From Candidatus Margulisiibacteriota bacterium (GTDB lineage Bacteria > Margulisbacteria > Marinamargulisbacteria > JBFWNS01), in NCBI GenBank assembly GCA_050250935.1, contig JBFWNS010000003.1, positions 160,001-224,000 on the forward strand: a stretch of DNA of 64,000 nt, given 5' to 3'. Made by a program: the position numbers and the translations under genes. This document shows, piece by piece, positions 39,001-60,346 of this stretch. The notes beneath the pieces were generated by a model, which saw only the letters and a program-made list of their open reading frames with translations, made no database searches and was not told the DNA's origin. The first letter of the stretch is position 1, and each line of letters starts with the position of its first letter.

Positions 39001-39309
39001 ACCCACGGCACGGCCAAGTTCTTAAAGCAAAATGGGGTTCCTGTCATTGCGGTCAACAAAGAAAAAGAAAACAGCGAAGATCATTTGGTTCAACACATTC
39101 AAGCCGGTTTGTATCAATTGGTGGTGAACACCAGTTTTGGGGTGGATGTATTGGAAAGCTTTGCCCTTCGCCGAGCCACGCTTTTGCAACGCACACCTTA
39201 TGTCACCACAGCTGCGGCCTTTATTGCTGGGGTTAAGGCCATTGTGTCGCTGAAAGAAAAGAAAACGCCCTTGTCGGCGGTGCCTATCCAGGAATGGCTA
39301 AAAGACTAG
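36046..39309 (+). CDS. carB: Carbamoyl-phosphate synthase large subunit
   Basis: [31 protein letters not shown] and a C-terminal MGS domain. Confidence 0.98.
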
Positions 39310-42088
39310 CTGTGTAGCCACCTGAAGAAGAGGCTGCTGTACTCATGTCAATGCTCCCTTGTTCGGTATCGTTTCTAAAAATAACTTGGCGTTTAACCCC
39401 CAGGTGATTCCAAACAGTAAAAACACCCTCTTTTTTTCCAAGAACCCAGTGTCCTTGGTATTTTTCGCCGTTAATGCAAAAAAGTGTCCCGTAGCCTTGG
39501 GGCTTGCTATTTCTGTTAACCGTGCCTTCATACCGATCCCCATTATCAAAAAAAATGTAGGCTGCGAACTCATCATCGTTTGAGTGGTCTAAATAGCGAA
39601 ATGCAATCCATTGTTTTTTGTTATCGACCTGAACAACCATGTGATCTACATTTCTGGGAATTCCTTGAAGACAATCTAGACTGGCTCTTGCATGTTTAAT
39701 CATTCGTTCCAAAGCAAGGATGTTTTTGTGTCGAAGGGCTTTTTGACTGAAGCACTTAAGTGCAAGAGATTGTTTGGGCTGTTTTTGGATCCACAGTTCG
39801 ACATAGTCTCGAATCATCGCGCTGGTTGTGTCTCGGCAACAACATTCCAAAAGTTTAGCCCCAAGTTCTTGTTTTTCTGGTTTTTTGGATTTTAAAAGGT
39901 GTACGGCTGCTTTAAACAGCAAGTCTTTATGTTTGGGTAAAAGGGGTAAAAATTCGAGTTCTTTGTGTAGTATTTCTAATTCCTTAACACCAATATCTCT
40001 CCAGTTTTTAAACAAAGAGGTTAGAAGTTTTAGCGCGATTTTAAGACGTTTTTCATAGGGTTTTATGGTGGGAGATTGACTCAGAGCAGCTCTTGCCACA
40101 AATTGAAATTTTGCATGATTCCCAACCAATAATCTTTGGAGTAATTTGTCTTGTTCTGGGACATAGCGAGGGTCTGTTTGACGCCTTTCTGTTACCCATA
40201 GCTGAATTTGAGCGGTTACCATGGCGCTTTTTGATAAAGAGACTTGATACAATGGTTCGAACGCTATGCCTGCATCCTGAGCATACAATCCCATAACGAC
40301 CATGGCTGCCGTTCGTGTGGATTGAAACCAACAATTGCCCATTTTCTGTCGACCTCTTAATTTTCCGAGTGAATCTGGGAGCTGTATAGGGCGTAAAAGG
40401 GGCCGTAGGGTTGTTTGTAGCGCCTCTACATCCTCTGTTTTTAACCGTGTTTGTGCAGCCATTTGTTCTAAGAATGTCCTCATATCTGTTACAGTGGCTG
40501 CTCGAATAACCCGTAGACGGTCATTTGTATCGTATGTTCCTGCCCCCTCTCCTCGATTACAAATATAAACGGTGTCTTTATAAATAACATACCCAACACT
40601 ATGTTCGCTCCAACCGCCCATCACCACCTGTGGGGCTGTTTGGCTGTTTCTCAAAATGGTTTGAATGGTGTCGGCTGATAAATAGAGTGCATCATAGGCA
40701 CGAAGAATATGGTCTCTTACTTTGTCTAGGATTCGATGTTGCTGTCTGTTCAATGTTGGGTCTCGGGATTCTTTTGCAAGACATTCTACAACAACCACCC
40801 GACCACCCTCGCCAAATAGACCACTATCAGGTCCATCGAGACGTTTTTGATTTAAAATGGCTTCTACGATTAAAGCTCTGCATCCATAAATATGAAGTCG
40901 ATGAACGAAATGGCCTTCCCGTAACCCGGCAATAAAGAGTCCGTCCTGATACACTTGGGTAATCTGGGTAACCGTAGTATGACTGCCTAAATCGTGCCCT
41001 TCTTGTGCTCCATTGGTAAATTGATTTCTATAGAGCCCCCTAATTGCACCCTGTTCCCATTCGCCTATCGTATAATAGCTCTGACTATATAAAATCCCTA
41101 GGCCGTGTTCGCGCCCCAGTATAAAGTGTCCTTCATAATGCTTTCCATCCACATAAAAGCGCTTTCCAGCGCCATGAGGCTGGTAGTCAACAATTGCTCC
41201 CTCAAAGCGACTGCCATCTTCATAATAAAAGGTACCGTAAGGGCTGGGTGTTCCTTCGTGCCATGTAATTTCCAGGTGGTTGCCTGTTCGAAAATAAACG
41301 GTCCCTCTTCCATGGGGCTTACAGTCTTTAAACTCTCCTTCGTAGCGCAAACCATGCCAACGACCTAGAAACTCGAAAATACCCTGATTGGCAGGAATTC
41401 CATTTTCGAATGTGGTTTTGTAGTTCCCGTCGAGACGATAAATGGTTCCATTTCCGTGTGGCAGTAGGTGCGAAGAAAGCGGGCCAAAATAATAAGTGTC
41501 GAGATTTTCCAGATAAACCAAGCCAAGATTGTCTGGATTTCCTTCAACCATAAACGCCATTCTATCGTTAACGATGGCTATACGAATTTGAGCATCAGTA
41601 CTCACCAAATCTCGCATAACCAGGCGTCGGTCTTGAGCAAGAATTAAATCGGCAACGGCTTCATTAAGGTGTTCAAGTGCTTGGGCAAGGAATTTTCTTT
41701 TTTCAGTCCATGTTATACGGCCACTATTGGGTTGTGCTGACCATTCTTGTAACCTTCTTAGTGCTTCTGCTGCATGTTCCCGACATGGAGACATCGAACA
41801 CATTTCGAAAATCCGAAGTGCCAAACCCTTTCTTTCTATGTAAATTTGATAATGCTTGGTTTGGGTCGAAAACAATTTTTGGGCTGCTCGAAGTAGCAGT
41901 CCGGTTTCCACTTCCTTCAGGTGAGCAGGCGTTTTTTTTGCAATGAATGAGGCAATGGCTTTTCTTCCAAGTTCTCGTTGTTCTTTTCTTAAGGAATTCA
42001 GCTGAACAACAGCGTGTTGAAGTTGCTTTAAAGTCGATAAATTTGGAAGTTGTGATAACGCTAAACTGACGATTTTTTTTATATACAT
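39284..42088 (-). CDS. MORN-repeat protein with central cysteine-protease-like domain (effector-like)
   Basis: MORN repeats ([43 protein letters not shown]-terminal YEGTV...PQGYG, YQGHW) flanking GW.EH...CNRG...QKMGNCW. Confidence 0.8.
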
Positions 42089-48667: not shown

Positions 48668-48704
48668 AGGGGAATCTGAGCCACCCTCGGATTCCCCTTT
48701 ATTT
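48668..48704 (+). terminator. Rho-independent terminator after tpx
   Basis: AGGGGAATCTGAG-CCACC-CTCGGATTCCCCT hairpin followed by TTATTT. Confidence 0.8.
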
Positions 48705-48752
48705 TGGGTCTGAAATTCCTTTTTTTGAAGAACTATAGTACAGTGTCTGCCC

Positions 48753-50801
48753 ATGTTATCCCTTACAGCTATTCCCTTTGTTCTTTTGGGTATTTTGTTT
48801 CTTACCGCTACCTATTTTCTGCTTAGTTTAAGATCCTCTCCATCCCTTTCCAAAATTCAAACCGAAGAAGATCCCGCTTTTGAAACCATTTCCTTGGTTC
48901 AAGATGGGTTAAACGCCTATTTGTTCAGGCTGTTAAGCAGTATCGGTCAGCTGATTTTGTATTCGTCTTTGTTGTTGATTTTGGTTTCCTTTTTAGCCCA
49001 CCGGCCCGTTGCTTGGATTCAAATCGGGTCCTTTGTTCTTGGCGGTGTTGTCATGATGGTCTCGACTGCGATTTTGGTCTATGCAACCCCTCGCTTTTCG
49101 TTGTATATCCTTCGCAACAGCAAGGCCTTTTTAACCGAATGTTTAGAGGTTTTGTATAAGTCTAGTGTTATTTTGGGTTTTTTAAGTATTGGGGTGATCG
49201 GCGCTGGTTTTTTAATTTGCAACTTGATATTGGGCACAACTGCTACGATTGGGTTTAGTGCCGGGGTTTGTTTGGCCGCTTTTTTTATGAGGATTGGCGG
49301 AGGCCTTTACAAGGCTGGCAGCGAAATTGCAACTTTGACCATTACCATTACAGACCCCAAACTGCCGGCCTTTGATAAACGAAGCCCTGCAACGCTTTTA
49401 AACTTGGCCGGCGATACCATCGGCAAACTGATTGGGTTTGGCTCTGATATTGCCTCGTCCTTTATTTTTACCTTTACAGCGGTTTTACTGCTTGGCTTTA
49501 CCGTTTTTGGCCGACATCCACTTACCAGTGCGTTGCTGTCTTTTCCTTCTTTGGTGATTGCGGCAGGATTTTTGGCAGCAGTTTTGGCGGCAGGCATTGC
49601 AATTTTACGGATTCGACAAAAAATGTTTAACAATGTTTTGTTAGAAGGGCTTTATGGCGCCGTGATTTTGTGCGCGGTTTTAACCTATGGTATTTCTCGG
49701 ATGCTTCATTTAAACCTTCGATTGTCCTTGGTTAAAGTTGGGGATATTTCGCTTTTCCCAGCCTATTTTATTGGCTTGGTCGGAGCAGTTCTGATTGCGT
49801 TTACCACCGAATATTTAACCTCGTTCCGATTTCGGCCCGCCAAAAAATTGGCCAAAGAAGCCGAAAATGGCGCCGCTATTTCCTTGATTAATAGTATTTC
49901 TTTGGTGTTTAGAAGTCAGGGCATTTACGGGCTTTATCTGATTGCGATTGGGGCAAGCGTTTATTATTTGGCTGGCATTTATGGCTTTGCGATGGCCAGC
50001 ATGGGCATGCTTTCGGCTACAGCCATGTTGCTCTCGATTACGGGTTTTTCGGCGCTTGCCAGACATTTGCATAAGGTTGCTGCGTTGTCTGATTTGAATC
50101 AGACCACTCAAAAAAACACAGCCAAAATGGACAGCATTGGAAACACCACCCAATCGTTGGGCAATGGGTTTTCGTCCGGAGCTGCGATTTTGTCTACGAT
50201 GGGACTTTTTTGCGCTTTAATTGTGATGGGACAACTGTCCTTTGATTTATTCCGACTCGTTACGTTGGACTGGGTGGTTGGCGTTGTCATGGGAACGGCC
50301 TTGCCCTTTTTGTTTTCGGGGTTTGTGCTTAAGGGTCTTAATAAAGCCACTTTTACCGTGGTTAATGAACTTGAAAGACAGTTCAGAGAGATTCCTTTTT
50401 TAATCGAAGGAAAGGCCAAGCCCGATATGACCACAGCTTCGGATACCCTGTCTCGGGTGTCCATGAATGCCTTGATTATTCCAGGGTTGTTGTTGGTTGC
50501 CTTGCCAGTTGGCATTGGCTATATTTTTGGCATAAAAATGTTAATTGGCTTTGCCTCGGGGACCTTTTTAATTTGCTTTAGCCAGGCGTTTCAATGGTCC
50601 AATATTGGCGATTCTTTGGACAATGCGGCCTATCACATTCGCAGTGGGCATTTTGGTGGGAAAACCAGTGCAACCTATGGGCATATTTCGACAGCCAACG
50701 GGGTAGGGGAAGCCGCCAAAGAATTGATTGGTCCCAGCATGGGGATTGTCATGAAATCGGTGACCATTGTGTCGTTGATGGTGATCTATCTGTTTCAATA
50801 G
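48753..50801 (+). CDS. Membrane pyrophosphatase (HppA-family) homolog with degenerate active site
   Basis: Multi-TM protein with family landmarks F.RIGGG.Y, TEY.TS, GNTT..LG.GF, RQFREIP...G.AKPD, DNA, GGK.S and GPS; catalytic Asp/Lys motifs are replaced. Confidence 0.85.
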   Translation: MLSLTAIPFVLLGILFLTATYFLLSLRSSPSLSKIQTEEDPAFETISLVQDGLNAYLFRLLSSIGQLILYSSLLLILVSFLAHRPVAWIQIGSFVLGGVVMMVSTAILVYATPRFSLYILRNSKAFLTECLEVLYKSSVILGFLSIGVIGAGFLICNLILGTTATIGFSAGVCLAAFFMRIGGGLYKAGSEIATLTITITDPKLPAFDKRSPATLLNLAGDTIGKLIGFGSDIASSFIFTFTAVLLLGFTVFGRHPLTSALLSFPSLVIAAGFLAAVLAAGIAILRIRQKMFNNVLLEGLYGAVILCAVLTYGISRMLHLNLRLSLVKVGDISLFPAYFIGLVGAVLIAFTTEYLTSFRFRPAKKLAKEAENGAAISLINSISLVFRSQGIYGLYLIAIGASVYYLAGIYGFAMASMGMLSATAMLLSITGFSALARHLHKVAALSDLNQTTQKNTAKMDSIGNTTQSLGNGFSSGAAILSTMGLFCALIVMGQLSFDLFRLVTLDWVVGVVMGTALPFLFSGFVLKGLNKATFTVVNELERQFREIPFLIEGKAKPDMTTASDTLSRVSMNALIIPGLLLVALPVGIGYIFGIKMLIGFASGTFLICFSQAFQWSNIGDSLDNAAYHIRSGHFGGKTSATYGHISTANGVGEAAKELIGPSMGIVMKSVTIVSLMVIYLFQ

Positions 50802-50829: not shown

Positions 50830-51597
50830 ATGCGTAAGTTGGTTGTTGCTGGAAATTGGAAAATGGTAAAAACCTGTGCAGAAACCGAGGCTTTTGCGTC
50901 GGCTTTCTCTCAAAAAATCAATCGCTCTTTCTCTGTTGAAACCATTGTTTTTCCTCCTTTTACAAGTCTTTCTGCGGCTAGAAAAGCACTGCCCAACATG
51001 GTCAAGTTGGGTGGGCAAAACCTCTATCCGGCTATCGAAGGGGCTTTTACAGGCGAAATCTCGCCGGGCATGCTCGTCGAGCTGGGGTGTAGCCATGTAT
51101 TAATTGGGCATTCCGAACGGCGCCAGTACTTTCATGAAGACCCTGCTTTTTTAGCTCGCAAGCTAGAAGCGGCCTTTACTGCAGGTCTATGCCCTGTCCT
51201 GTGTATCGGAGAAACCCTAGAACAATACGAAGCGGGAACAACTCAGGCTGTGTTGGCGTCTCAATTGAAACAAAGCCTAGAACCCATCAAAGCGGCTTGT
51301 CTGGCCAACCCGTTTATTATTGCCTATGAACCCGTTTGGGCGATTGGTACGGGTAAAGTGGCCACGGCCGAGTATGCTCAAGAGGTTCATGCTTTTGTTC
51401 GCAAAGTTCTTGCCGATTGTTTGTCTTCGACCTTGGCTGAAACCATTCAGATTTTGTACGGCGGCTCTGTTAAACCCAATAATGCTGTAGAGCTTCTAAG
51501 CCAGCCCGATATTGACGGGGCGCTTATTGGTGGGGCCAGTTTGGATCCAGACTCGTTCTTCGATATTATTGTTGGTGCGCATGACCTTAAAAAATAA
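50830..51597 (+). CDS. tpiA: Triosephosphate isomerase
   Basis: AGNWKM, GHSERR, AYEPVWAIGTG, YGGSV and GGASL. Confidence 0.98.
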   Translation: MRKLVVAGNWKMVKTCAETEAFASAFSQKINRSFSVETIVFPPFTSLSAARKALPNMVKLGGQNLYPAIEGAFTGEISPGMLVELGCSHVLIGHSERRQYFHEDPAFLARKLEAAFTAGLCPVLCIGETLEQYEAGTTQAVLASQLKQSLEPIKAACLANPFIIAYEPVWAIGTGKVATAEYAQEVHAFVRKVLADCLSSTLAETIQILYGGSVKPNNAVELLSQPDIDGALIGGASLDPDSFFDIIVGAHDLKK

Positions 51598-51617: not shown

Positions 51618-52310
51618 ATGCTTAAAAAATGGTTTGTTTTGGCCCTTGTGTTTTCTTTTGGTTTTGTGGGTATTGCCCAAGCGGCTCCTGTTCTAAATGA
51701 GCCTATTGTTCGCATCGAAACCTCCATGGGCGATATTATTGTGAAGTTGTTTCCGGATAAAGCCCCCATTACCTGTAAAAACTTTATGGATTATATCGAA
51801 ACAGGGTTTTACAACGGCACCATTTTTCACCGGGTTATTGATAATTTCATGATCCAAGGTGGCGGTTTTGTTCCTGGTTTGAAGCAAAAGAAGACCTTGG
51901 ACCCGATTAAAAACGAAGCCTCAAATGGCCTTAAAAACAATCGGGGTACCTTGGCCATGGCCAGAACCTCGGTGGTGGACAGTGCAACGGCTCAGTTTTT
52001 TATCAACTTGCGCGACAATGCCCATCTTAATTTTCAAAACAGCAGCCAAAATGGTTTTGGCTATGCGGTGTTTGGCGAAGTGATTTCTGGGATGGACGTG
52101 GTTGATCGTATTGCCAAAGTCAAAGTAACCCGGGTTAGCTATTACGAAAACGTGCCCGAAGAAGATGTGGTGATTAAAAGCATGTCGATTTTGCGAAAAC
52201 CAGAAGTGGAATCCGCAAAGAAAACGCCAACTGCCAACCCCGTGGTTTCAACCCCCAGTGCCCAATCCACAAGCCCGTCTGTAAACGAGCCTGTGGTTAT
52301 TGGCTATTAA
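51618..52310 (+). CDS. Periplasmic cyclophilin-type peptidyl-prolyl isomerase
   Basis: Signal peptide; FHRVIDNFMIQGGG, GTLAMART, AQFFIN and GYAVFG. Confidence 0.94.
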   Translation: MLKKWFVLALVFSFGFVGIAQAAPVLNEPIVRIETSMGDIIVKLFPDKAPITCKNFMDYIETGFYNGTIFHRVIDNFMIQGGGFVPGLKQKKTLDPIKNEASNGLKNNRGTLAMARTSVVDSATAQFFINLRDNAHLNFQNSSQNGFGYAVFGEVISGMDVVDRIAKVKVTRVSYYENVPEEDVVIKSMSILRKPEVESAKKTPTANPVVSTPSAQSTSPSVNEPVVIGY

Positions 52311-53741: not shown

Positions 53742-56087
53742 ATGCGTAAACTGATTGCCCTTCGTGCGCCGCTTGGGTTAACAACACCCATTGCATTAAG
53801 CCCTTTTTTGGATGGATTGGGAGGCGAATCTGCTTTCCAGGTTTCCCTTCAAGCTGGTGCCGCTTCGCAATCAGGTATCTCCATTTATCCGTTTCATCTT
53901 GGGGATGTAAAGGGTTTGGAAGTTCCTCAAGCTTTTCGTACTGCCATTGCGGAGGCTGCATTAAATGCGGCTATCACCTATACCCCAACTGCTGGTACGC
54001 TTGAACTTCGTCAGGAACTGGCTGCTTATTTGAGTAGCGTTTATGGGATCCCTCTCAAAGCAGACAATATTGCGGTCTCTCCGTCCAAAGAAACACTGGC
54101 TAAACTGTTTATGATGTTAATGGGGCCCGAAGCAAAATTTTCTTATCCGGTTCCTGGATACCCCATTTATGCCTCTTGGGCTTCGATGGCCGCATCTTTC
54201 TTTAATCAAGCCGATATGGCTCAGCCCTATACACTCAATCTAAATTCCGAGACACCGGGGATCGATATTGCTTCGCTTAGAAAAACACTTGAAGCGGGAG
54301 CAACTGTGGTGGTGATTAACGACGACCACAATCCCACAGGCTCTAGCATGACCCCCGAAGTTGCAGCCGAATTACAGGCCCTGTTTGCCGAATTTCCTCA
54401 GGTTTTTGTGATTTTTGATATCGCTTATAGCCAAAGTCGCTTCTCTGAAAAACCCAGCGCTGCTATGGGGCTCTTTCAGCAACTGTTTAGGGAAAATCGA
54501 GCGGCCTTTGACTGGACCTTCAGTAAGGTTGGGGCTGCAACTGGGGCTCGACTGGGGTGTGTTATCTTGCCGAACCGCGCTGTAAAAACAGATAATACCA
54601 GTATTAAAACCCTCATGGATGCCTTTAATAAACTCACTGGCAATTTAGAGTCCTGCCCACCCAGTCTTGAGCAAATTGGGCTTTTGGCTGCGTTGAAAGC
54701 GCGTGATAAATTTGATGAAACTGTGAAACGCAATAATGCTGTTTTAAAAGAACGCAGGGATGTCTTGATGGGTCATTTGGGAAATATCGAAGGGGTTAAG
54801 GCGGCAACACCAGATGCTGGGTTTTATGTCTTTGCCGATGTTACCCAATTGATTGCAGATCTGGGCTTTGGCAAAGATGTTGAAGCGTTCCGAAAAGCAG
54901 CTTTGGATGCCACAGGGGTTAGCTTTTGTACGGGCAACCATTTTGGCGAAACCGATAAATATTATCCCGATCAACGGTTTGTGCGGTTTGCGTTTTCGGG
55001 CATCACAAAAGAAGATATTGATACAGCCATGGTGAAATTTAAACAATGGATTGAAGACCGTAAGTTTGCACAAGTTCATTTTCAAGACAAAAAAGTGGCG
55101 GTTTTTGGGGCAGGGCCTGTGGGGCAACTGGCTGCACACCGGTTAAGCTTGGCTGGCGTTCAAACCACTCTGGTTACCCGCAACGCCTATGAAGCTGTTC
55201 AGGATCATGGGGTTCAAGTCACTTTACCCGTTCCAATGACGTCTAAGCCGGAGGTTGTTCGAACTGCAGGCGAATTAACGGGTCCTTTGGATGTCATTTT
55301 TATTGCCAACAAAGTTACCGATGATATCAGAGACCAGATTCGCCATTTGGTGGGGCCTCAAACCCAAATTGTTTGTTTGCAAAACGGCATTACGGCAGGA
55401 GATGCCTACCAGCAGGCTTTCCCTGACAATATCGTGGCCCAAGTTTCGATTTCGGTTCAAATTCGTCGCGATGGGGACGCGTTTACCATTCCCAAAGAAT
55501 TGGGCTGGAAAATGGGGCCAAAACGTCCCGATCAACAGGCCTCGGACTTGAAAGATTTGGCCCAGGCCCTTCGTGGTGTCGGGTTTAAAAACACCGAAGC
55601 GGTTGATCCCAAACCTATGCAAACCGCAGCCTGGGAAAAGCTGATTCGCAACTTGGCCAATTTTGCAGTATTGCAACTGGCCTTGGTTGGAAAAGGCCAA
55701 ACCTATGGGGATCTGTTGGCAGACGATGCCGCCCCAGTCCGGGCCCAAGTGCAAGTTGCTTTGGACGAATTATTAGGCATTGCTAGGTCTCGAGGTGTTG
55801 AGTTACCGAAATCCTCCAGCGACTACATGCGCGACATTTTAGCCTATGTTAAAACCGGCCACATCTGCACCACGTTGAATGCTTATGCCCAAGGCCTGGA
55901 AATTGAAGATTTATTGGCCGATGTGATCGGATTGGCTGGCAAGGAGTCAACATCTGCACTTGCGGAGCTCCAGGCACCTGTTTTGCAACACAATAAAGAA
56001 CCCAAGCAACACACCCTAAAAGAAGGGCTTCAAGATGCCAAGACATTGGAAGCGTTGTATCAAAAAGCACTTCTTGAGGTGCGGTGA
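53742..56087 (+). CDS. Fusion of PLP-dependent class I/II aminotransferase and ketopantoate-reductase-like (ApbA/PanE) dehydrogenase
   Basis: aa ~20-445: FHLGD, PGYPIY, HNPTG, DIAY, TFSK, G.RLG, VRFAFS. aa ~450-781: AVFGAGPVG, IFIANK, CLQNGI, WEKLIRN, EIE. One uninterrupted frame. Confidence 0.85.
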   Translation: MRKLIALRAPLGLTTPIALSPFLDGLGGESAFQVSLQAGAASQSGISIYPFHLGDVKGLEVPQAFRTAIAEAALNAAITYTPTAGTLELRQELAAYLSSVYGIPLKADNIAVSPSKETLAKLFMMLMGPEAKFSYPVPGYPIYASWASMAASFFNQADMAQPYTLNLNSETPGIDIASLRKTLEAGATVVVINDDHNPTGSSMTPEVAAELQALFAEFPQVFVIFDIAYSQSRFSEKPSAAMGLFQQLFRENRAAFDWTFSKVGAATGARLGCVILPNRAVKTDNTSIKTLMDAFNKLTGNLESCPPSLEQIGLLAALKARDKFDETVKRNNAVLKERRDVLMGHLGNIEGVKAATPDAGFYVFADVTQLIADLGFGKDVEAFRKAALDATGVSFCTGNHFGETDKYYPDQRFVRFAFSGITKEDIDTAMVKFKQWIEDRKFAQVHFQDKKVAVFGAGPVGQLAAHRLSLAGVQTTLVTRNAYEAVQDHGVQVTLPVPMTSKPEVVRTAGELTGPLDVIFIANKVTDDIRDQIRHLVGPQTQIVCLQNGITAGDAYQQAFPDNIVAQVSISVQIRRDGDAFTIPKELGWKMGPKRPDQQASDLKDLAQALRGVGFKNTEAVDPKPMQTAAWEKLIRNLANFAVLQLALVGKGQTYGDLLADDAAPVRAQVQVALDELLGIARSRGVELPKSSSDYMRDILAYVKTGHICTTLNAYAQGLEIEDLLADVIGLAGKESTSALAELQAPVLQHNKEPKQHTLKEGLQDAKTLEALYQKALLEVR

Positions 56088-58505: not shown

Positions 58506-59258
58506 ATGTCAGTAGGCGGCGTTGGTCCAACGCCTTTAAGAGCCCCTCAACCCAATCCCCCCAAAACGCCCGAACCGGCCCGTAGTTTTGCGCCGCTAGA
58601 AACCAAAAAACCTGCCCCCGCACCTTCGCCGACCTACACACCGATTACGGTTAAAACCCTGGGCGGTCATAGCAGCGATTTGTATCAACCCAAGTTTACG
58701 GATGGGGGAGAGAGCTCTGCGGAATCCAAACAATCGGCACAAGACCGCAAGGACTATACCCAACAATTAACGGTTCAAGCCTTCAAAGATCGGGTTATCG
58801 AATACCAAGAAAAAATGACCATTCTTAGCGAGGTTCGAAAGCACCACCAGGAACGCGAAGCGCAGATGGCCACGAAATCTACACCCGTGCTCAGCGAAGA
58901 GTCCACCCCCGCCTCTCAACCCAAACCAACGGCCTTCGTTTCTGCCGAAACCCTTACCGAAAAACGCCTCAAAACCTTGGAAGAAAGCATTTCTGGACTC
59001 CAAAAAGAAAGTCGCTTAAAAGAAGTCTTAAACAAACTGCTTCGAAATCCTTTTGAATTTGACATCGAAGCGTCGTTTTTATCAAAATCCAAAACAAAGT
59101 CGTCCCATGCAAAACTTCAGAAAAAAAGGAATCAGATTCAAGCCGACGAAAGCCTGTTTTTTAGCTGGTTAACCCCAACCCAATTTACCTGGGCTCTGAT
59201 TATTTTGGCCTTTTTAATCGGCTTTGTTTTTGCAGTTTTCTACGTTAAATCGGCTTAG
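58506..59258 (+). CDS. Hypothetical protein with Pro-rich N-terminus, coiled coil and C-terminal TM anchor
   Basis: 250-aa ORF with a single hydrophobic helix at the extreme C-terminus. Confidence 0.75.
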   Translation: MSVGGVGPTPLRAPQPNPPKTPEPARSFAPLETKKPAPAPSPTYTPITVKTLGGHSSDLYQPKFTDGGESSAESKQSAQDRKDYTQQLTVQAFKDRVIEYQEKMTILSEVRKHHQEREAQMATKSTPVLSEESTPASQPKPTAFVSAETLTEKRLKTLEESISGLQKESRLKEVLNKLLRNPFEFDIEASFLSKSKTKSSHAKLQKKRNQIQADESLFFSWLTPTQFTWALIILAFLIGFVFAVFYVKSA

Positions 59259-60346
59259 TCACCCAAACAAATTCCGAGTCGTTTTGCGGTATCAATGAGG
59301 GGATGATCCAAGGGAATCAGCCGATCTGAAGACGCTGCGACTTGAAGCGGCACCATGTCCAAACCAGCGCCTTTTAAGGCCACCATTTTTCCGTATTCTT
59401 GGTTTAGAACAGCCTCGAAGGCCCGAATGCCAAATTGGGTTGCTAAAATGCGATCATAAGCGCAGGGAATGCCACCACGCTGGGTATGACCAAGGACTGT
59501 CACCCGGGCATCCACATCCATTTTTTGGGTTAACTCGGCCATAAACTGATACCCAACCCCTCCCAACATCGCATTTTGATACCCAGCTTCGGTGCTGGCA
59601 TGCTGCACGGTTTTACCATGAAGGGGTTTGGCACCTTCGGCAATGACAATGTTGGCGAATCCCAATTTCCGATGGAAGCGGTTATTCAACTTTTCGATGA
59701 CAGAGTCAATGCGATAGGGAATTTCTGGAATGATGGCCACATCAGCCCCCGCTGCAATGGCGGCATGAAGACAAATCCACCCCGCATCGCGGCCCATAAC
59801 TTCGGCAATCATGACCCGGTTGTGGCTTTCGGCTGTGGACACCAATTTGTCGACGGCTTCTGTGGCAATTTGAACGGCGGTTTCAAATCCAAACGACACG
59901 TCGGTTCCGGCCAAATCGTTGTCGATGGTTTTGGGTACCCCAATAATATGGAGTCCCTTTTCAAACAGTTTTTGCGAGATTTGCTGAGAGCCATTGCCCC
60001 CGATGTTGATCACAGCCTCAACATTAAGCCTCTTTAAGGTTTCGATCAGCTCGTCAGATCGATCGATCAAAGTAGTGCTGCCATCAGCCTGAGGGGTTGG
60101 AAAGCTGAAGGGGTTTCCTTTGTTGGTGGTTTCCAGAATGGTTCCGCCTTTAACATGAATCCCCGACACGGCGGCTTTGTCCAAAACCACCACCTGCTGG
60201 GGGTCTTGCAACAGGCCATTGAAGGCCCGTTTGCTGCCCAACACTTCCCACCCACCTTCGTTTAAGGCAGCACGAACGATGGCCCGAATAACGGCATTCA
60301 ACCCAGGACAATCGCCCCCACCCGTTAAAATTAAGATTCGTTTCAT
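59255..60346 (-). CDS. pfkA: 6-phosphofructokinase, probably ATP-dependent
   Basis: TGGGDCPGLNA, GGNGS, PKTIDND, EVMGR and LGHTQRGG. Confidence 0.93.
   Translation of the reverse strand: MKRILILTGGGDCPGLNAVIRAIVRAALNEGGWEVLGSKRAFNGLLQDPQQVVVLDKAAVSGIHVKGGTILETTNKGNPFSFPTPQADGSTTLIDRSDELIETLKRLNVEAVINIGGNGSQQISQKLFEKGLHIIGVPKTIDNDLAGTDVSFGFETAVQIATEAVDKLVSTAESHNRVMIAEVMGRDAGWICLHAAIAAGADVAIIPEIPYRIDSVIEKLNNRFHRKLGFANIVIAEGAKPLHGKTVQHASTEAGYQNAMLGGVGYQFMAELTQKMDVDARVTVLGHTQRGGIPCAYDRILATQFGIRAFEAVLNQEYGKMVALKGAGLDMVPLQVAASSDRLIPLDHPLIDTAKRLGICLGD

Follow-up and report, generated by a model that had tools for sequence, protein, structure and literature searches.

A widely conserved membrane pyrophosphatase homolog upstream of tpiA in Marinamargulisbacteria is probably a maintained non-hydrolytic protein with a putatively rebuilt funnel

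Membrane pyrophosphatases (mPPases) are, to our knowledge, credited with one function only, and their catalytic residues hardly vary across the family. According to the part of PMC5150537 that is accessible, water activation requires both D6.43 and D16.39, mutation of K12.50 abolishes hydrolysis as well as pumping, and a K16.50-D6.50 pair represents the closed gate. Accessible parts of further works make the glutamate at 6.53/57 part of the ion site (PMC10897367), report that I12.54A uncouples a plant pump (PMC6882861) and assign the dimer relay of canonical pumps to a set of residues in helix 13 and loop 13-14 (PMC6882861, PMC10897367). In such excerpts it is disputed which step drives the ion, binding or hydrolysis, and in what way the work is divided between the subunits (PMC6882861, PMC9408878). 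Residues are numbered by the helix scheme of PMC6882861 and assigned with the lists in its accessible part, which give 16 hydrolytic-centre residues binding Mg2PPi; N12.53, as printed there, is taken to mean the Asn seven residues before K12.50. No description of dead mPPases, or of the clade presented here as type A, was returned by a full-text literature search that covered few subscription journals and no supplements. In the paper on Margulisbacteria genomes (PMC6349859), the string "pyrophosphat" does not occur in the main text, and no mention was found in the accessible part of the review PMC11210485.

The gene described here lies in a window of 64,000 nucleotides, the whole stretch of DNA analysed, from a Candidatus Margulisiibacteriota genome (Table 1). 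Its open reading frame on the forward strand encodes 682 amino acids without internal stops, and the protein matches PF03030 over the full length of the profile (312.7 bits, positions 15-644 of 645). Twelve NCBIfam mPPase models are matched and none of the 12 is passed (best score 319 for a cut-off of 546 bits); a canonical HppA of the same class passes 4 of 13. The AlphaFold model (32-row alignment; pLDDT 86.3, pTM 0.89) has only mPPases as best Foldseek matches, with TM-scores to solved mPPases of at most 0.87, and a search of the ESM Atlas returned PF03030 clusters only. The best solved match is the K+-dependent Na+-pumping mPPase of Thermotoga maritima (HppA; PDB 4AV3, 5LZQ, 9G8J; E 2e-63, TM-score 0.86), with which R5.50, D6.50, S6.54, K16.50, E13.59 and R13.62 are shared. 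Unlike in that pump, 12 of the 16 active-site residues are changed and D11.50, K12.50, E6.53, D16.46, S5.43 and I12.54 are lost, and K5.57, D15.58, N12.50 and a patch at the junction of helices 7 and 8 are new in the window protein. The fold is also common to the Vigna radiata H+-PPase (PDB 4A01) and the K+-independent H+-PPase of Pyrobaculum (PDB 8B37), but the window protein has no Glu at 6.57 or 6.53 and no Lys at 12.46. Judged by its gate residues, it fits no described mPPase subclass. A homodimer prediction for residues 205-682 scored 0.40 (mark 0.42); E13.59 and R13.62 of helix 13 are conserved in the clade and the remaining listed dimer-interface positions (helices 10, 13 and 15) are variable. 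Given the conserved residues of helix 13, we assume that the protein forms a homodimer.

Most features seen in the first-pass annotation of this DNA are borne out: the frame is intact and full-length, the six motif substitutions that it listed are all in register in an HMMER alignment to the T. maritima (4av3) and V. radiata mPPases, the four structural motifs said to persist are present in the same alignment, and the gene does stand upstream of tpiA, which starts 28 bp downstream. The claim that the catalytic machinery has been erased is right in that most of it is lost, including K5.58, D6.43, D11.50, D11.57, K12.50 and the gate Glu, but overstated: four of the 16 residues are retained (D221=6.39, N464=12.43, D623=15.61, K656=16.38), three further Asp residues have become Glu, and R180 (5.50), D232 (6.50), S236 (6.54) and K668 (16.50) are intact. 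The water-activating pair D6.43/D16.39 is replaced by K225 and E657, and the gate glutamate sites 6.53 and 6.57 hold S235 and F239, respectively. In the coupling funnel, R5.50, D6.39, D6.50 and K16.38 are kept, K5.58, D11.50 and K12.50 are lost and D16.39 is Glu.

Table 1. Positions in the window of the type A gene, its altered and retained elements and its neighbours (counts refer to 79 type A orthologs and 100 canonical mPPases)
Feature	Coordinates	Strand	Basis
Terminator-like 13-bp hairpin with T run, between upstream redoxin gene and mPPase homolog	48668..48698	+	consensus scan
Degenerate mPPase homolog type A, 682 aa, predicted mPPase fold	48753..50801	+	PF03030, HMMER, AlphaFold, Foldseek
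Helix 5, R180 (R5.50, basic 79/79) to K187 (new Lys 5.57, basic 69/79; Thr in canonical pumps)	49290..49313	+	alignment
Eroded helix 5/loop 5-6/helix 6: K5.58>A, D5.61>E, D5.65>L, E5.76>A, D5.77>F, D6.35>N, D6.43>K; D6.39 kept	49314..49427	+	alignment
Ion gate: D232 (D6.50, 78/79) and S236 (S6.54, 73/79) kept; Glu 6.53 replaced by S235 (Glu 0/79)	49446..49460	+	alignment
New clade-specific patch, helix 7-8 junction: R286, N294, L297, E298, Y301 (Tyr 79/79)	49608..49655	+	alignment, column rates
Lost helix 11 motif: D11.50>T430, D11.57>R437	50040..50066	+	alignment
K12.50>N471 (Asn 61/79)	50163..50165	+	alignment
Helix 13 and loop 13-14 (E539=13.59, R542=13.62, Q543 to D558), slowest clade segment	50367..50426	+	column rates
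D620, new acid at 15.58 (Asp/Glu 72/79; Gly/Ala in 98/100 canonical)	50610..50612	+	alignment
Helix 16: D16.31>N, D16.35>E, K16.38 kept, D16.39>E, 16.46>G; K668 (K16.50, basic 79/79)	50697..50756	+	alignment
tpiA, triosephosphate isomerase; conserved downstream neighbour	50830..51597	+	locus comparison
Cyclophilin-type peptidyl-prolyl isomerase; frequent third cluster gene in class	51618..52310	+	locus comparison

For conservation, 79 type A proteins from loci and search matches (rows below 560 aa, near-duplicates, type C/D proteins and 15 other rows left out) were compared with 100 canonical mPPases, which were selected for all 16 residues and thus score perfectly by construction; a set chosen otherwise gave 30/30 too. 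In type A, K5.58, D11.50 and E6.53 occur in none of the 79, D11.57 in 1, K12.50 in 3, D15.61 in 4 and D6.43 in 10. Retained residues are R5.50 and D6.50 (78 each), S6.54 (73) and K16.50 (72, plus 7 with Arg), as well as E13.59 (77) and R13.62 (75) of helix 13. Individual orthologs hold between 0 and 11 of the 16 active-site residues, seven holding none at all; acids of helix 16 and some of helices 5 and 6 are kept in 50-70%. New residues have also become conserved: K/R5.57 (69) and D/E15.58 (72), which co-occur in 65 of 79 proteins, N12.50 (61), Thr/Ser 12.61 (68), and further R286, N294, L297, E298, Y301, Q66 and W615. Position 12.54 is Ser, Ala or Thr in 71/79 type A proteins, as against Ile, Val or Met in 97/100 canonical ones, position 5.43 (canonical Ser) is mostly hydrophobic and 6.57 holds a bulky hydrophobic residue. 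The gate columns are within the slowest 1% of the clade, and the 16 active-site columns have a mean rate of 0.87 for a median of 0.96. In canonical pumps, the columns of the helix 7-8 patch (N294/L297/E298/Y301/R286) evolve fast (rates 0.7-3.4); compared with those pumps, loop 13-14 is slower in the type A clade. The most eroded proteins, of family f6 (L068, L071, L073-L076), have 0/16 active-site residues and have also lost K15.64 and K16.38. The window protein agrees with 61 of the 64 columns conserved to at least 80% in the clade.

Relatives were gathered by whole-genome searches; a pattern search of genome contigs with the window protein alone returned none. Type A orthologs are found in 38 of 41 Marinamargulisbacteria genomes, the own genome counted, and a tpiA match is also missing from the three others (G017, G032, G039), which points to assembly gaps as the cause. 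In a wider set of 55 genomes of the class, 49 have a type A-level match, 8 of these by an E-value < 1e-200 alone. Two type A proteins are named by NCBI as Ca. Marinamargulisbacteria hypothetical proteins. Within the fetched flank, tpiA lies downstream in 36 of the 38 loci, directly adjacent in 32, often with mgtE-recO upstream and the cyclophilin gene after tpiA. The gene can be lost, as in G044 (76% complete), in which recO is joined straight to tpiA with no gene between, and as indicated by an in-frame TAA at codon 84 of the G009 ortholog, which is either a recent break or a read error. A fixed partnership with triosephosphate isomerase was rejected because tpiA-fba occurs without the gene in the G070, G072, G074 and G129 loci and G044 has tpiA-ppi, and it is further weakened by an HD-GYP-like gene interposed in several loci; shared transcription accounts for the linkage equally well. 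A Mg2+ link via mgtE was likewise discarded, since mgtE-recO is absent upstream in the own genome, not within 3 kb in the sister form described below and retained in G044 after the loss. GC and GC3 match those of the neighbours, against horizontal arrival of the gene, and a promoter-like site at 48710-48739 is at chance level (8 found versus 7.7 expected).

A search of the phylum (146 genomes; 40 loci fetched from more than 150 matches) brought to light a less eroded sister form in 13 genomes of four Margulisbacteria families outside the class. It stands directly before tpiA in 12 of them, the 13th being at a contig end, and tpiA is followed by a class II aldolase gene (fba) and a PPi-dependent phosphofructokinase-type gene (pfp). 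All 13 proteins keep K5.58, K15.64, K16.38 and D16.39, while most other Mg ligands, E6.53 and K12.50 are each kept in 12; D6.43 and D11.50 occur in none. Gln or Asn replaces R5.50 in 6 of the 13 and D6.50 in 5. The mean net charge of 20 pocket positions is -8.7 in canonical pumps, -4.5 in the sister form and -1.5 in type A, in which basic residues are better retained than acidic ones. Among the 92 members of both forms D11.50 is absent, D6.43 and D16.39 occur together in 8 and with K12.50 in only 2, and a basic 5.57 is combined with a basic 12.50 in one. Type A and the sister form make up one branch with an SH-aLRT of 99 in a quick search under a mixture model (70 rows; midpoint root, long branches). 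At the sister-form position G071 carries a fully intact mPPase, and G002 has a cluster of dead gene, tpiA, pfk and intact hppA; the remaining out-of-class loci inspected are intact pumps without tpiA nearby (one with masked residues).

The own genome holds a second PF03030 gene on contig C7 (G000:C7:8475-10724; L002:1444-3693; L122), which encodes a type C protein of 749 aa without D6.43, D6.50, D11.50 and K12.50. Type C lacks D6.43, D6.50 is missing from every type C row with a letter at that column and E13.59/R13.62 are mostly absent; types A and C thus retain complementary residue sets. The type C/D group (also L053-L067, L069, L070, L077-L080) reaches several copies per genome, with many pocket acids kept and D6.43, D6.50 and D11.50 lost, and one close pair has a dN/dS of 0.076. 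These genes often precede an unknown gene of 130-145 aa and one for a large protein without Pfam match (Pfam scan of some); by eye, some of the large proteins look translocator-like, and a TPR gene is added in two loci. A single FHIPEP gene is present in the own genome. Seven further partly degenerate mPPases of unassigned origin (P0160, P0198, P0212, P0228, P0245, P0248, P0264) have differing loss patterns, which suggests other independent erosions of mPPases.

Pairwise dN/dS (Nei-Gojobori with Jukes-Cantor correction) was 0.037, 0.024, 0.159, 0.070 and 0.061 for type A pairs, one more pair being saturated, and 0.020, 0.035 and 0.065 for canonical HppA controls; the most eroded type A family gave 0.15-0.25 at near-saturated dS. 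For the sister form, six pairs ranged from 0.021 to 0.125, one pair being saturated, with controls at 0.067 and 0.092. These values come from orthologs, the nearest of which is 43% identical to the window protein. Type A frames are intact at 30-43% identity over more than 20 families, with one stop among 38 loci, and end branches are mostly 0.4-1.7, versus 0.01-0.44 for the canonical pumps of the class. The maintained pseudo-enzyme proposed in the first-pass annotation is supported: its orthologs occur throughout most of the class, every pair with usable dS lies at 0.02-0.25 (0.024-0.25 in type A) with no sign of neutral decay, and the gate columns are the slowest ones while active-site columns are near average.

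With a probability of roughly 0.9, type A is a maintained non-hydrolytic protein, whatever its function. We regard type A as a genuine and old clade of pseudo-enzymes that is under selection and whose stepwise history can be read, and it has likely taken on another function. With the loss of D6.43, K12.50 and most Mg ligands, hydrolysis and coupled pumping should not occur by the established mPPase mechanism; PPi hydrolysis and ordinary pumping by type A appear very unlikely. As to the new function, the tentatively preferred reading is that type A lets a small ion, perhaps phosphate or some other anion, pass its rebuilt funnel, working as a transporter or a gated channel. The Mg-PPi pocket, acidic in canonical pumps (net about -9), would have become near neutral, and K5.57 with D/E15.58 would form a new funnel pair replacing D11.50-K12.50, a predicted contact that rests on helix periodicity. 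R5.50-D6.50-K16.50 would remain the gate, loosened by the change of the hydrophobic-gate residue I12.54 to Ser, Thr or Ala. The fold does not seem to depend on this triad, since type C lacks D6.50 and the sister form, in part with Gln/Asn at R5.50 and D6.50, is nevertheless under selection. The mid-membrane path, which other dead paralogs with intact frames have lost, is under the strongest constraint, and together with the new polar residues of the inner ring this suggests a rebuilt conduction path. Between the passive channel and the sensor envisaged in the first-pass annotation, the residue pattern would lean slightly toward ion conduction. Only three observations point to phosphate or a similar anion: the shift in charge, the glycolytic context and the importer gaps of family f6, in whose 6 genomes no Pit, Na/Pi or PstC match was found; the last is a weak hint. 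The basic phosphate pocket is not universal, as f6 lacks K15.64 and K16.38. Importers over cut-off among the 41 genomes are Pit in 4, Na/Pi in 11 and PstC in 21, and a Pst or Na/Pi system occurs in most genomes, including the own one, so type A was rejected as the sole phosphate route. What seems to argue against conduction is the gate itself: position 6.53 has no Glu, nor has 6.57, which is bulky hydrophobic, and 5.43 is mostly hydrophobic, so that no known H+/Na+ carrier site would be left. The retained K16.50-D6.50 pair, typical of the closed gate, would also speak against it.

The same lost glutamate is accounted for equally well by a sealed, non-transporting sensor or membrane scaffold, an alternative only slightly less probable. 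In such a protein, the R-D-K triad together with K5.57/D15.58 would lock the pore, and a cytoplasmic ligand or partner would be bound via the helix 7-8 patch, whose cytoplasmic orientation is inferred from topology, and the helix-13 relay; the proposed ligand is PPi for the sister form and something else for type A. The new invariant patch at columns that are canonically fast, which conduction explains no better, and the slow loop 13-14 fit such a function. So does the sister form, which has the pattern of a binder (PPi/Mg ligands mostly kept, D6.43 never) and stands before an operon with PPi-dependent phosphofructokinase. A stand-alone HD-GYP-like gene of ~190 aa directly follows type A in 5/38 loci (L010, L014, L017, L022, L031), before tpiA in four. 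However, the protein carries no fused output domain and lacks a signalling neighbour common to all loci, tpiA being the only constant neighbour, and the mid-membrane charges are near-invariant although other dead paralogs lose them.

Returning to conduction, its most specific form is a stepwise conversion, within Margulisbacteria, of a primary PPi pump into a secondary transporter or ligand-gated channel for phosphate or a related anion, a reading that is rather unlikely. An intact hppA before tpiA-fba-pfp would have been followed by a binder with pocket and gate kept and the nucleophile aspartate gone, and then by the form now spread over the class, in which the pocket is neutral and phosphate or a related anion would move through the rebuilt funnel. 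Type C would be a separate paralog with the pocket retained and the gate lost. Synteny and residue nesting are the grounds for the proposed donor and order of events. If the conversion took place, these natural half-pumps would allow a direct test of whether substrate binding alone moves the ion. Two ready constructs for the dispute on binding versus hydrolysis, and on the sharing of work between subunits, exist in any case: the sister form, which keeps pocket and gate without D6.43/D11.50, and type A, which keeps the gate but not the pocket. A dead clade kept across one class and into other classes implies a second use for the mPPase scaffold.

A third possibility, a regulatory heterodimer subunit acting with active HppA as the first-pass annotation had proposed, or an ion-moving half paired with type C (pocket kept, gate lost), is improbable. 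The retention of E13.59 and R13.62 and the complementary residue sets of types A and C speak for pairing, which is possible in the 4 of 13 sister-form genomes with intact HppA, and G002 holds both genes in one cluster with tpiA and pfk. However, tblastn of the own genome (95.85% complete; two PF03030 genes) with six mPPase types detected neither a third PF03030 gene nor the canonical hppA paralog that a heterodimer would call for, its only other PF03030 gene being the degenerate type C one, and a soluble family I PPase is present. The canonical HppA of the class (e.g., G022, L033) belongs to the same family and, unlike type A, has 16/16 residues, evolves slowly and is nearly mutually exclusive with soluble PPase: among the 41 genomes, intact mPPase occurs in 21, soluble PPase in 14 and both in only 2. 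Nine of the 18 genomes at least 90% complete (7 families; related genomes not being independent) have no intact mPPase match, and all nine keep type A, eight with a soluble PPase and five with type A as the only full-length mPPase-like gene and no type C/D match. The G036-G033 pair, with dN/dS 0.037, has no intact hppA detected in either genome (83-84% complete). The pattern says INDEPENDENCE from HppA: either real enzyme takes care of PPi removal, and type A is kept both ways. Pairing with type C meets the further difficulty that this paralog also lacks D6.43 and mostly E13.59/R13.62. G021 has a soluble PPase and only a short C-terminal hppA remnant (L081), whose neighbours are genes found next to intact hppA elsewhere. 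In L051 (G006:C5), an intact but highly divergent mPPase (16/16, K12.46), which we take to resemble the Na+-regulated H+-PPase subfamily, stands in place of the usual HppA.

Type A could also still be a phosphohydrolase with altered chemistry or substrate, given the acids kept by many orthologs and the eight clade members with both D6.43 and D16.39, but this is highly improbable: D11.50 is never present, only two members join that pair with the essential K12.50, seven type A proteins have no active-site residue left, and HppA-less genomes mostly have a soluble PPase, so PPi removal is seemingly not the task of type A. That the gene is a decaying pseudogene carried by the tpiA operon, as its fast evolution, one stop and one clean loss might suggest, is largely refuted and scarcely credible in view of the low dN/dS, the intact frames and the new invariant residues, which the window protein shares. 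Some proteins of type A and the sister clade are annotated in databases as "sodium/proton-translocating pyrophosphatase", a label that would credit genomes like the own one with a PPi-driven pump that they apparently lack.

Elsewhere in the window, the reverse strand encodes a protein of 934 aa (39284-42088) with MORN-like glycine/aromatic repeats at both ends and an unknown core, and the forward strand an open reading frame of 781 aa (53742-56087) in which an apparent aminotransferase would be joined to a ketopantoate-reductase-like domain, both by eye. A phosphofructokinase on the reverse strand (59255-60346) passes the cut-off of the ATP-dependent model PRK03202 and has Asn at the Asp site of the GGDG-type motif, where Asp is presumably usual.
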